A stretch of 3,215 nucleotides of DNA from a virus (lineage: Duplodnaviria > Heunggongvirae > Uroviricota > Caudoviricetes), in the IMG/VR virus record IMGVR_UViG_2667527595_000027, positions 1 through 3,215 of that record. The stretch is one strand, 5' to 3'. The notes beneath the pieces are model-generated. The model had not been told where the DNA came from. It made no database searches and saw only the letters and a list, made by a program, of their open reading frames with translations. Of this stretch, positions 1 through 3,215 are shown piece by piece; the first letter of the stretch is position 1, and each line of letters opens with the position of its first letter. The translations under genes and the position numbers were made by a program.

Positions 1-411
1 TCAAAAATTATCAAACCCGGCAAAGTCACCGCCGCCGTGGCAGGGATGGTTTCCGGGATGACAGTCGCCAANNAAGGAGAGGTGGCGAATAAGCGGATCG
101 CGCAGATAGGACGGCAGCAGGCGCAGTGAGGCCATGGCCTCATCTACCGCGCCGCGTGCCTGTTTTCTGGCGTCTCCTGCCAGTGTGATTGTTTTGTCCT
201 GTTTTTCCTGTGCGTCCAGGCTTTTATTAATCAGGTTGCCCAGCGGCGTGGCGGAGAACGCCGCATCAGCCATTTCCTGGCGGCGCTCGTTCTCTGCCCG
301 GTAGGCATCCAGCCAGGAGGAAAGCGCGGATTCAGGAGCGGGGATCCCCGTTCCTTCACGCCCCACTGCGTGGCGCGGTTGTTGCCAGTCCCTGATGTAC
401 TCTGCCGTCAT
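1..411 (-). CDS. Hypothetical protein, 136 aa, with a C-terminal Cys/His cluster (GDCHPGNHPCHGGG); last gene of the minus-strand cassette
   Basis: ATG at 409-411 and TGA at 1-3 on the minus strand. It starts 6 nt after the stop of the upstream 121-aa gene, with only a weak SD (GAAG), consistent with coupled reinitiation. GC-rich relative to the rest of the cassette by eye. Two codons are undetermined because of NN at 72-73. No family recognised. Confidence 0.5.
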   Translation of the reverse strand: MTAEYIRDWQQPRHAVGREGTGIPAPESALSSWLDAYRAENERRQEMADAAFSATPLGNLINKSLDAQEKQDKTITLAGDARKQARGAVDEAMASLRLLPSYLRDPLIRHLSXXGDCHPGNHPCHGGGDFAGFDNF

Positions 412-417
412 AGTGAT

Positions 418-783
418 TTACTTCGTCATGCCATTCAGGGTGTCGCGGCAGACTGTAGCCAGCCGCTGAATTTCCAGCACGGTGTCTTCTGTGTCGGCAT
501 GGCGATGTGTGATGCGGATGCTGTCGGCAATCACATTGACGATTGCAGAGGATGGGCGCTGGTAAATGCCAATAACGGACGGGGTGCCACCTTCAATGCG
601 GTAAAGCCTGTAATTTCCCTCGTGGCTGTCAATCATGTAGCGACCATCAATAACAATCTTTCCGTCAGCGAGCTGCGGTACAAGCAGGGATTTCAGGTAC
701 ATGTCATAACGTTCACGCACGCGAACGGCAAGATCACGCTCTGTGTTGAGCAGGTATTCAAGAAAGTCGTTGGCGAGAATCAT
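418..783 (-). CDS. Hypothetical protein, 121 aa
   Basis: ATG at 781-783 preceded by a GAGGA Shine-Dalgarno about 8 nt upstream; TAA at 418-420. The antisense plus-strand ORF 370-948 has a GTG start and a Cys/His-rich, low-complexity-looking product, so the minus frame is preferred. No family recognised. Confidence 0.55.
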   Translation of the reverse strand: MILANDFLEYLLNTERDLAVRVRERYDMYLKSLLVPQLADGKIVIDGRYMIDSHEGNYRLYRIEGGTPSVIGIYQRPSSAIVNVIADSIRITHRHADTEDTVLEIQRLATVCRDTLNGMTK

Positions 784-924
784 TGCGGCAATCCTCTTGT
801 TACAGATGTGCGAAGGCCTCCCGCCACAAGGTGCAGGAAAGACCCGGAACAGGAATTAATGGAGTTTGTTTTGCTGCCGGATGAGCTGCTGAAGCCCGAC
901 GTGGTTTCCGGCAGTTGGAGGTGC

Positions 925-1170
925 TCATGCTCTGATTTCCCTCAGTAGCTGGTTGAACATCTGGGTTAGTGGGTTGCTACACCCAAACGGCATCGGGTTT
1001 ACCTGATAAGAAAAGCGACCGCCTGTTTTGCGCTCTTTTCTTATGACTGAACCGCTGCGCCAGAGACGGCGTAGCTCCGCATTAATGGTTGTGGTTGGTG
1101 TATTCAGTGCTGCGGCGATTTCTCCACCGCTACAACCCGGATTGGCAGCGATGTAGTCCAGAATGGTCAT
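925..1170 (-). CDS. Putative winged-helix DNA-binding protein, 81 aa (a longer 100-aa form from a TTG at 1225-1227 is possible)
   Basis: ATG at 1168-1170 with AGGAG (plus-strand 1179-1183) 8 nt upstream. The ATG overlaps the TGA of the upstream gene as ATGA. The sequence ILDYIAANPGCSGGEIAAAL...INAELRRLWRSGSVIRKERKTGGRFSY reads as helix-turn-helix followed by a basic beta-hairpin wing. Fold is inferred by eye only. Confidence 0.55.
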   Translation of the reverse strand: MTILDYIAANPGCSGGEIAAALNTPTTTINAELRRLWRSGSVIRKERKTGGRFSYQVNPMPFGCSNPLTQMFNQLLREIRA

Positions 1171-1370
1171 CTGCGTGACTCCTGTACCTGTCTGATAAGA
1201 TTTACCTGCACCACGTTGGTGGCGCAAAAGTAAGTGCCGTCAGTGAGATAGATGTGATGTGCATCCTTTTCTGAACGGTGTTTGTCGATTGTGGTAATCA
1301 GGCGTTCGTCAACTTCGTATTCACGTCCTTTGGAGGTGAAACGAACGACGGGAAAATGCTTAATTGCCAT
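1167..1370 (-). CDS. Hypothetical small protein, 67 aa (MAIKHFPVVRF...)
   Basis: ATG at 1368-1370 sits 4 nt downstream of a perfect AGGAGG (plus-strand 1375-1380 = CCTCCT). The ORF track's longer version starts at a GTG at 1419-1421 and lacks this SD. The stop TGA at 1167-1169 overlaps the next gene's ATG. Confidence 0.55.
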   Translation of the reverse strand: MAIKHFPVVRFTSKGREYEVDERLITTIDKHRSEKDAHHIYLTDGTYFCATNVVQVNLIRQVQESRR

Positions 1371-1456
1371 TACGCCTCCTTGGCGTGTGCGAATACCTCC
1401 GCGAATGCGGATTGTTTTCACATTTTCTTATTTAACCTGGGGTCTTATTTGCGCGG

Positions 1457-1570
1457 TTATTCTTCAGTGAAAAAGCGTTCAATCTTTTTTACTGAATTAA
1501 TAATTCGCATAATCCCAATGGCGCAGACCACCGAAATAATCAGAACAAGCCATGAGATAAATATACTCAT
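1457..1570 (-). CDS. Small predicted single-pass membrane peptide, 37 aa (MSIFISWLVLIISVVCAIGIMRIINSVKKIERFFTEE); absent from the ORF track
   Basis: Translated by hand from the reverse complement of 1457-1570. ATG at 1568-1570 overlaps the TGA of the upstream 80-aa gene (ATGA). A hydrophobic stretch of about 20 residues is followed by a charged C-terminal tail (KKIERFFTEE). It lies in the most AT-rich part of the cassette. Only a weak SD (GGGAAA) is present. Confidence 0.4.
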   Translation of the reverse strand: MSIFISWLVLIISVVCAIGIMRIINSVKKIERFFTEE

Positions 1571-1809
1571 GCGATATTTCCCAGCTTATACGGTTCAATA
1601 TGTTCCCCGCATTCTGCGGCATAGATCAGCTCGGAAAGTTCGTTAAGTGCATCCAGATCATCAGCGTAAAAAGCCACGTCATACAGACTTCGGATTGCTC
1701 TGGTCAATGAGTCACGGGCCGCACGTTCAGCATGAGCGCCTGATGCACTTAAGCGAAAATAAAAACGCTCAAGTGCTTTGTTAATGAGAGTTTTATATTC
1801 TTTGCCCAT
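1567..1809 (-). CDS. Hypothetical protein, 80 aa from the ATG (the track's 81-aa form starts one codon earlier at a GTG, 1810-1812)
   Basis: ATG at 1807-1809 with an AAGGG SD-like motif about 7 nt upstream, and 11 nt after the TAA of the 92-aa gene. TGA at 1567-1569. No family recognised. Confidence 0.5.
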   Translation of the reverse strand: MGKEYKTLINKALERFYFRLSASGAHAERAARDSLTRAIRSLYDVAFYADDLDALNELSELIYAAECGEHIEPYKLGNIA

Positions 1810-1820
1810 CACAACGCCCT

Positions 1821-2099
1821 TTAATCTGCTTTCTGAATTTCAGCTTCTGAATCCATACAAATAATTTCGATATAGGGGTCATCGCCATTAACCTGACGTG
1901 CCTTTTCAGCTTCGCTAATGATTTCTCGTACGGTCTGGTACGGAAGCTCCACAGTCAGGCGCGTACCGTTCAGATAAACGTAAGTAGCTGCGTTTTTTTC
2001 GGATGGAACAACTCCGTCAATGGCTGATGCGCGTAATAACAGTTCACCGCGAAAATCAATAAAACGGATAAATACACCTTGTGCATGCTCTTTGGTCAT
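1821..2099 (-). CDS. Hypothetical protein, 92 aa; first gene of the minus-strand cassette in this window
   Basis: ATG at 2097-2099 with AGGTG 4 nt upstream; TAA at 1821-1823. Its upstream promoter region runs into the ambiguous-base cluster at 2125-2135, so no promoter can be read. Confidence 0.5.
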   Translation of the reverse strand: MTKEHAQGVFIRFIDFRGELLLRASAIDGVVPSEKNAATYVYLNGTRLTVELPYQTVREIISEAEKARQVNGDDPYIEIICMDSEAEIQKAD

Positions 2100-2124
2100 A
2101 AAGCACCTGTTATAAATCAGCCTG

Positions 2125-2135
2125 NNTNATNNACN
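2125..2135. other. Cluster of ambiguous base calls (7 Ns interleaved with called bases) at the cassette/chromosome junction
   Basis: The sequence reads cctgNNtNatNNacNc. Ns mixed with called bases indicate consensus uncertainty rather than a scaffold gap. Confidence 0.9.
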
Positions 2136-2136
2136 C

Positions 2137-2361
2137 AGTTACGGCGCACCGAAAATTGGTGACATTCCGCGTGATTTCCGCGCTGTGCTGGTGCCGAGCG
2201 ACGATAAAGTCGGCCCATTCGGGGCGAAATCGATCTCGGAAATCGGTGTAAATGGTGCCGCTCCGGCGATTGCTACCGCAATTCACGATGCCTGCGGCAT
2301 CTGGTTACGCGAATGGCATTTCACACCGGAGAAAATACTCACCGCGCTGGAAAAAATATAA
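2137..2361 (+). pseudogene. xdhD: 3' remnant of a xanthine dehydrogenase / aldehyde oxidase family molybdenum-binding subunit gene (xdhD-like), about 74 codons with no start codon
   Basis: The frame ending at TAA 2359-2361 translates to ...GPFGAKSISEIGVNGAAPAIATAIHDACGIWLREWHFTPEKILTALEKI, which resembles the conserved C-terminal region of Mo-binding subunits of this family. The frame has no ATG and is open only back to a TAA at 2113-2115. It lies directly upstream of xanQ, as xdhD does in E. coli K-12 (gene order recalled, not checked). The start coordinate is approximate because of Ns at 2125-2135. Confidence 0.55.
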
Positions 2362-2370
2362 GTAATAAAT

Positions 2371-2399
2371 GGCCGCTTCGGCGGCCTGTTTCTCTGTTT
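2371..2399 (+). terminator. Intrinsic (Rho-independent) terminator after the xdhD remnant
   Basis: GGCCGC-TTCG-GCGGCC forms a perfect 6-bp GC stem with a tetraloop (2371-2386), followed by a T-rich tract TGTTTCTCTGTTT (2387-2399). Confidence 0.7.
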
Positions 2400-2513
2400 G
2401 AGCGATGACTAAATAGTGACTGCGAAAATGAGATAAGCCGTTCTCAAGGCGTCCTGCGCCCCAAATTCGTGGGAATTTATTTTACTAATTCAGATGATCA
2501 AATTTACTTTAAA

Positions 2514-2518
2514 AGGAG
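2514..2518 (+). promoter_or_regulatory. Shine-Dalgarno (AGGAG) for xanQ
   Basis: AGGAG lies 7 nt upstream of the ATG at 2526. Confidence 0.6.
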
Positions 2519-2525
2519 TGAAGGG

Positions 2526-3215
2526 ATGTCTGATATAAACCATGCAGGTTCTGACCTTATATTTGAACTGGAGGATCGCCCTCCCTTTCATCAGGCTCTC
2601 GTAGGTGCCATTACCCATCTGTTGGCAATTTTCGTTCCGATGGTAACCCCCGCGTTAATCGTGGGTGCGGCCTTACAGCTTTCCGCTGAAACAACTGCCT
2701 ATCTTGTTTCTATGGCGATGATCGCCTCTGGTATTGGTACCTGGTTACAAGTAAACCGCTACGGCATCGTCGGTTCTGGTTTACTTTCAATTCAGTCAGT
2801 CAATTTTTCATTTGTTACGGTCATGATTGCGCTGGGTAGCAGCATGAAAAGCGACGGTTTTCACGAAGAGTTAATCATGTCGTCGCTACTCGGCGTCTCC
2901 TTCGTTGGCGCATTTCTGGTTGTCGGCTCTTCTTTTATCCTGCCCTATTTACGTCGGGTTATTACGCCTACCGTCAGCGGCATTGTGGTGCTGATGATCG
3001 GCTTAAGTCTGATTAAAGTTGGCATTATTGATTTTGGCGGTGGTTTTGCAGCTAAAAGCAGCGGTACGTTCGGCAATTACGAGCATCTCGGCGTTGGCTT
3101 ATTGGTTTTGATTGTGGTGATCGGCTTTAACTGCTGCAGCAGTCCGTTGCTACGCATGGGTGGGATCGCCATTGGGCTATGTGTCGGCTATATCGCATCG
3201 TTATGCCTGGGCATG
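2526..3215 (+). CDS. xanQ: Xanthine permease XanQ (NAT/NCS2 family), N-terminal 230 aa; the CDS continues beyond the window end
   Basis: ATG at 2526 with a good SD. The translation MSDINHAGSDLIFELEDRPPFHQALVGAITHLLAIFVPMVTPALIVGAALQLS... matches what I recall of the E. coli XanQ (YgfO) N-terminus. It is strongly hydrophobic with several predicted transmembrane segments, and the frame stays open to the window end. Confidence 0.85.
   Translation, partial: MSDINHAGSDLIFELEDRPPFHQALVGAITHLLAIFVPMVTPALIVGAALQLSAETTAYLVSMAMIASGIGTWLQVNRYGIVGSGLLSIQSVNFSFVTVMIALGSSMKSDGFHEELIMSSLLGVSFVGAFLVVGSSFILPYLRRVITPTVSGIVVLMIGLSLIKVGIIDFGGGFAAKSSGTFGNYEHLGVGLLVLIVVIGFNCCSSPLLRMGGIAIGLCVGYIASLCLGM

Follow-up and report, generated by a model that had tools for sequence, protein, structure and literature searches.

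What does a 37-residue hydrophobic peptide do in the early operon of a prophage, and is its reading frame a gene at all? Both questions are raised by a stretch of viral DNA of 3,215 nucleotides (IMG/VR record IMGVR_UViG_2667527595_000027, positions 1 to 3,215; here called the window in its full length), in which an earlier note, made from the letters alone, had picked out a short minus-strand frame that opens on an ATGA junction with an 80-aa gene. The frame is present as described, and its start is the first ATG past an in-frame stop. We hold with high confidence that it is a real membrane peptide gene. Together with the DUF4754 gene that it overlaps, it would form a conserved two-gene accessory module of P88-like prophages, of which the peptide is the early-expressed inner-membrane part; we give this reading a probability of roughly 0.6.

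On the minus strand, roughly the first 2100 positions of the window carry a portion of an early lytic operon, that of a P2-like, P88-type prophage (genus Xuanwuvirus, Peduoviridae). Of 5426 complete E. coli genomes, 1366, about a quarter, have a match to bases 900-2110, and in 1136 of them the match covers at least 80% of the query. In the ST131 chromosome NZ_OX637961 the gene order runs from the divergent integrase and C-type repressor genes through cox, a 68-aa gene and a DUF4761 gene to a 92-aa gene, the DUF4754 gene, the 37-aa gene, a 67-aa gene and a MarR-type gene, and ends with an ash fragment, a 121-aa gene and the gene for replication endonuclease A. Phage P88 (KP063541) has the identical order. 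According to the RefSeq and P88 annotation tables, the small ORF is an early-operon frame, with cox on one side of it and replication gene A on the other. Such an operon is repressed in the lysogen in P2-type phages, as the annotation of P2 and 186 and general knowledge of the C/Cox switch of P2 indicate.

The window itself is a composite. Its prophage part ends abruptly past the start of the 92-aa gene and is without DUF4761, cox, the repressor gene and int; Ns follow at 2125-2135, and from about 2133 on the sequence is ordinary E. coli chromosome, with the 3′ end of xdhD and then the 5′ end of xanQ. None of the 5426 complete E. coli genomes carries the prophage/xdhD junction (window 2100-2135), which is thus probably a scaffold or assembly join. 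Two further Ns, at 71-72, lie inside the minus-strand ORF 1-411, at the start of the replication-endonuclease-side genes, and with those at 2125-2135 they suggest a source sequence of draft quality. The features discussed below are collected in Table 1.

Table 1. Features of the small ORF and its surroundings, in window coordinates.
Feature	Position	Strand	Description or basis
Small ORF	1457..1570	-	37 codons plus stop; encodes MSIFISWLVLIISVVCAIGIMRIINSVKKIERFFTEE
Predicted transmembrane helix, codons 3-21	1508..1564	-	Hessa scan, family alignment, AF2 helix
Basic, then acidic amphipathic tail, codons 22-37	1460..1507	-	Charge pattern, hydrophobic moment, tail variants
Homopolymer runs A6 (1485-1490) and T5 (1471-1475), in coding sense	1471..1490	-	1-nt slippage sites
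ATGA start/stop overlap with the DUF4754 gene	1567..1570	-	Read from sequence; kept in the divergent loci examined, including Salmonella
DUF4754 (PF15946) gene, 80 aa	1567..1809	-	Pfam; predicted three-helix bundle
Hairpin TCCGC-ATTC-GCGGA(GG)	1396..1411 (flanks 1385-1421)	-	46 nt past the small-ORF stop
Next gene, 67 aa, phrog_3459	1167..1370	-	Outside the conserved module; relatives carry another gene here

At the junction, the ATG of the small ORF (1570-1568) shares its TG with the TGA stop of the DUF4754 gene (1569-1567), and the two coding sequences overlap by 4 nt; the earlier note was right about the junction and wrong about its extent, which it gave as one base. The Shine-Dalgarno-like sequence upstream is weak in the window (GGGAAA). 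The region is AT-rich, with a GC content of 0.37, and had been called the AT-richest stretch of the window. It is in fact one of three equally AT-rich troughs, the others being 1768-1881 and 2452-2565 (0.36 each). Likewise, the frame was unannotated only on the ORF track from which the earlier note worked. RefSeq/PGAP calls exactly the same CDS as the hypothetical protein WP_000021668.1, GenBank lists it in phage P88 (KP063541) as AIZ95115.1, 'membrane protein', and UniRef names the peptide 'Prophage membrane protein'. The exact sequence occurs on at least 1000 contigs, ST131, O55:H7 and EAEC 55989 lineages among them. The present finding confirms an already annotated hypothetical gene as real and is not the discovery of a new element. 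Its product is an ordinary small membrane protein of phage, uncharacterised and in no curated family, and is found very widely in E. coli.

Evidence for coding comes in part from close relatives. A sample of 80 IMG/VR loci reached via the DUF4754 gene, together with phage records and an E. albertii locus, gave 58 distinct sequences, most of them above 85% DNA identity. The small-ORF frame is intact in 54 of these and broken in 2, the core (the helix and RII.SVKK) is retained in 56, and DUF4754 is intact in 57. Polymorphic sites at codon positions 1/2/3 number 12/4/18 in the small ORF, 19/15/54 and 12/11/36 in the flanking genes. Frame conservation had been named beforehand as the check, with tolerated frameshifts or stops as the outcome that would speak against a gene. 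With 54 of 58 frames and 56 of 58 cores kept, and with the pattern in the more distant relatives described below, that outcome did not occur, and the gene is taken as real. The overlapping plus-strand ORFs (1278-1646 and 1282-1470) had been dismissed as spurious, and rightly so, as the equivalent of 1278-1646 is open in just 14 of the 58 relatives. It is open in the window because its third codon positions coincide with those of the small ORF.

Among these relatives the last ~6 tail residues are variable or dispensable; tail variants of 45, 41, 34 and 30 aa all retain residues 1-30. The common 45-aa variants, altered only in their last residues, arise when the A6 or T5 run slips by one base (two loci have T4 and one has a changed A run, for example), and rarer changes yield variants of 34, 40 and 50 aa. 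The isolated phage Chuche encodes a 30-aa truncated peptide, and truncated or frameshifted versions are also found in many prophage and IMG/VR sequences. One 'complete genome' record, that of phage 503458 (NC_049341, 1722-2145), has frameshifts both in DUF4754 (70 aa) and in the small ORF (25 aa), due either to sequencing errors or to decay of a prophage. Proteins of 103-128 aa that appear in the database as 'fusions' are frameshift artefacts, and no natural fusions.

More distant relatives extend the evidence. Among 1.84 billion representatives, searched exhaustively with HMMER, there were only 8 matching clusters, all of one enterobacterial prophage family. The divergent 41-aa relatives have 50-65% peptide identity and keep the position, the ATGA overlap and the helix; the Salmonella version is the lowest, at 31%. 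Against the 41-aa homologues dN is 0.25-0.30 and dS about 1, hence saturated, for a dN/dS of 0.25-0.30. Differences at codon positions 1/2/3 from three divergent relatives amount to 10/3/18, 11/6/22 and 12/3/18, second positions changing least. At 64-71% nucleotide identity the frame is still open and the hydrophobicity of the helix preserved. In a six-frame comparison the sense frame has the highest amino-acid identity, and of the other five only one antisense frame is free of stops. When random mutation was simulated to equal divergence, the observed amino-acid identity without a stop was reached in 28, 3 and 430 of 20,000 trials, and the observed helix hydrophobicity in 109, 32 and 120 of 20,000. 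Judged from these alignments, purifying selection acts on the frame, the overlap and the hydrophobic helix in relatives down to ~30-50% peptide identity.

That the locus encodes no protein, its conservation stemming from an overlapping DNA or RNA element or from low divergence and the frame being fortuitous, is very improbable. Such a reading draws on the high DNA identity of most of the sampled sequences, on the conserved RNA hairpin nearby and on the two broken frames. Against it stand the open frame, the sparing of second positions and the preserved hydrophobicity at 64-71% nucleotide identity, the lower identity of every other frame, the closure of the antisense ORF in all but 14 of the 58 sequences and the lack of a meaningful Rfam overlap.

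The peptide has the properties of a single-pass membrane protein. Residues 3-21 (IFISWLVLIISVVCAIGIM) form a hydrophobic helix. When the window was scanned in all six frames, giving 2979 stop-free 19-mers, this one had the lowest summed Hessa insertion energy (dG -3.35, with a mean Kyte-Doolittle hydropathy of 2.81), lower even than that of the XanQ permease helices encoded in the same window. No charge precedes the helix; four K/R (R22, K28, K29, R32) and three D/E follow it. The ~20-residue hydrophobic helix and the charged tail of the earlier description are thereby borne out. From the absence of charges before the helix and the four K/R behind it, the positive-inside rule predicts an N-out/C-in topology. 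Tail residues 22-35 have a high hydrophobic moment, about 2.0, and AlphaFold2, run with the family alignment, predicts a single helix over residues 2-35 (mean pLDDT 86.5). In that alignment S6 and W7 are invariant, and L10, I11, A17, I18, G19, M21, R22 and I24 nearly so. The small residues S6, S/A13, A17 and G19 are conserved and lie on one helical face, which suggests a surface for helix-helix packing.

The gene upstream is a clear member of DUF4754, matching all of profile positions 1-80 of 80 (E=1.9e-52; 175.9 bits against a gathering cut-off of 27), and it also matches phrog_2549. The label 'DNA modification methyltransferase' given to it in the P88 record (3408-3650) is unsupported: Pfam recognises only DUF4754, the structure model is an 80-aa bundle of three helices, and the one related hit, a PADLOC match to a type IIG enzyme, is at chance level (E=0.023). 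The description of PF15946 does not mention a coupled downstream peptide. A search for homologues at the same relative position, proposed at the outset, found them next to DUF4754 in all loci examined: each divergent peptide lies directly 3′ of a DUF4754-type 80-aa gene and overlaps it by 4 nt. Even in a Salmonella prophage, where no gene is called at the site, the ATGA junction opens a 50-aa frame with an FSW...AIAIVR helix. The surroundings change from relative to relative. Upstream of DUF4754 there is a 92-, 84-, 88- or 90-aa gene, or none; downstream of the peptide there is a 136-138-, 92-, 87-, 71-, 162- or 67-aa gene. Because the flanking genes vary on both sides, DUF4754 and the peptide can be regarded as a stable two-gene unit within a mosaic region.

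Within this unit the partners are not locked to each other. DUF4754 diverges to 26-53% identity, the peptide to 51-65% in the 41-aa relatives. The 37-aa peptide type is found with DUF4754 proteins of 100% and of 45% identity, and the 41-aa type with those of 83% and of 40%. Set against window 1457-1809, loci L086-L090 and L096-L100 combine a DUF4754 of 83% with a peptide of 65%, and a DUF4754 of 45% with a peptide of 83%. Such shuffling implies that recombination has had a breakpoint at the ATGA junction or close to it, and it argues against a tightly co-evolving complex. As the peptide is the better conserved of the two, a conserved host target fits at least as well as a partnership with DUF4754. 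We give even odds to the peptide working together with DUF4754.

Past the small ORF lies a short hairpin, present in exactly one copy per related locus whatever gene comes next. Its four-nucleotide loop varies (N4) and its stem is kept. Stem variants include TCCGT...ACGGA, a compensatory change of C:G to U:A, and TCCGT...ATGGA, in which G:C becomes G.U and which pairs only in operon-sense RNA. Stem pairing is found in 100% of cells, against 38-63% in slid controls. The hairpin has no Rfam match and, on the sense strand, no U-run after it; on the plus strand it reads as a weak terminator-like site. The terminators after P2 B and after 186 dhr are unrelated to it. It marks the 3′ edge of the module, ahead of a slot for variable genes, and candidate roles for it are an RNA processing or stability element, an antitermination-type site and a module boundary. 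In the slot (window 1371-1456, compared with six related loci) different relatives carry different genes. The commonest encodes a 136-138-aa protein and is absent from the window; elsewhere an 87-, 92-, 71- or 162-aa gene is found. From this arrangement of genes, we read the slot as a variable-gene insertion point inside the early operon.

Family searches placed the peptide in no known class. Alone and as a family, it had no meaningful match in Pfam, PHROGs, NCBIfam, PADLOC or a PDB profile search. No toxin family of Pfam, NCBIfam or PHROG was matched at E<=1 by the window peptide or by 24 family members, Hok/Gef, Fst/Ldr, TisB, Ibs/Sho and DinQ included, and no holin or lysis family of Pfam or PHROGs was matched by the peptide. 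Rfam gave only chance snoRNA matches over the locus, none overlapping the small ORF meaningfully. A consensus scan, which a weak promoter could escape, detected no promoter-like site on the plus strand of 1100-2150 and none directly upstream of the small ORF. A literature search on DUF4754, WP_000021668 and P88 turned up no functional study, and a CFT073 Ribo-seq preprint does not address the prophage operon of the small ORF.

The toxin-like or lysis-type role that the earlier note had drawn from the architecture of the peptide finds no backing in these searches, in the early-operon location, or in any own promoter-like site or antisense RNA signal, though overexpressed peptide may still be toxic. 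As a type I toxin-antitoxin toxin of the Hok, Fst/Ldr or TisB kind, the peptide would stabilise the prophage, and by general knowledge of these toxins it does resemble the Fst/Ldr and Hok types: it has fewer than 50 aa, an N-terminal transmembrane helix and a short charged tail, and it is encoded on a mobile element. A type I locus, however, must be transcribed independently in the lysogen and requires an RNA antitoxin there. Here there is no match to a toxin family, no Rfam antitoxin RNA, and no antisense promoter-like site in the consensus scan. Whereas the known toxins are independently transcribed and RNA-repressed, the small ORF has no promoter-like site or leader of its own and is ATGA-coupled inside a repressed lytic operon. 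It would for that reason be silent in the lysogen, exactly where a stabilising toxin must act, and the probability of this reading is next to negligible. Scarcely better placed is a holin, antiholin or single-gene lysis peptide. The single helix and charged C terminus would suit it, but a holin would sit in a late lysis cassette, and this gene has an early-operon position, between cox and gene A and well away from the late genes. It matches no holin family, and Chuche and many prophage and IMG/VR sequences carry truncated or frameshifted versions of it.

The main rival to the two-gene module is a stand-alone inhibitor of a host membrane process, modelled on small single-pass division inhibitors and on phage early 'kil' functions. 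The peptide would by itself cause damage to the inner membrane or its depolarisation, or would arrest a process at the membrane, cell division for instance, with DUF4754 a mere neighbour. Lambda kil is a non-essential, host-inhibitory early-operon gene in a similar place. The position of the small ORF is also comparable to that of fil and dhr of phage 186, non-essential and host-inhibitory, which likewise are small dispensable genes between a switch gene (cox/apl) and the replication gene in an operon of lytic growth only. Fil (75 aa) and Dhr (66 aa), unlike the peptide, have no N-terminal transmembrane helix, and there is no similarity between them and it; P2 and 186, checked for a positional equivalent, have neither DUF4754 nor the peptide. 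The single helix of the peptide, very hydrophobic and followed by a charged tail, agrees with such an inhibitor, the conserved small-residue face suits binding to another helix, and the greater conservation of the peptide and its shuffling relative to DUF4754 suggest a host target. Yet early depolarisation would, on general reasoning, cost the phage its own energy supply, the families searched reveal no sequence relation to known inhibitors, and the strict adjacency to DUF4754 with an ATGA overlap in every locus is left unexplained. We consider this rival unlikely, if far from negligible.

How the two-gene module might operate can be outlined from the features above. Ribosomes that finish DUF4754 would reinitiate at the ATG of the small ORF, so that the peptide would be made only upon derepression of the early operon and roughly in step with DUF4754. 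It would then insert into the inner membrane with its uncharged N terminus out, while the tail (R22, K28, K29, R32), an amphipathic continuation of that helix, would face the cytoplasm. The small-residue face may pack against another transmembrane helix, either a second copy of its own or that of a host inner-membrane protein, and the tail may serve as a docking site at the membrane for the DUF4754 protein, a predicted soluble bundle of three helices. Most likely, the module serves a non-essential early accessory function, for example in host takeover or exclusion at the inner membrane; non-essential because Chuche carries a 30-aa truncation and 45-aa tails produced by frameshift are common. 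The module is unlikely to be a lysis device or a type I toxin-antitoxin locus, and any one specific molecular target has a small probability.

Several small membrane proteins offer a frame for this proposal. SidA, Blr, MgrB, AcrZ and MgtS in bacteria and T4 Imm and SPO1 gp56 in phages are examples of the class concerned. The peptide is like these members in size, in its single transmembrane helix, in a small-residue face suited to packing and in its short soluble tails; unlike all of these proteins, bacterial and phage, to which it is non-homologous, it is always paired with a gene for a soluble three-helix bundle. Small single-pass proteins that bind larger membrane proteins make up a functional class (PMC12648545 and general knowledge), into which the peptide falls with fewer than 50 aa, a single predicted transmembrane helix and a positive-inside topology.

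Small membrane proteins are under-studied, and the present one is unusually widespread. Its strict pairing with DUF4754 provides a testable context for two genes of 'unknown function' at once. Should the two act on a membrane protein of the host, a new phage-host interaction would be added, and possibly a small-peptide probe for that protein. More far-reaching, and doubtful in our estimate, is that DUF4754, the 37-41-aa peptide and the downstream hairpin together make up a hitherto unrecognised module in the early operon of P88-like phages, present in about a quarter of complete E. coli genomes; in it the peptide would target a conserved host inner-membrane machine and DUF4754 would be its regulator or cargo. 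Were this so, the divisome, FtsH or a transporter used by competing phages would be examples of such a machine, and the module would take over the host, or exclude superinfecting phages, by a small-protein mechanism that is new.
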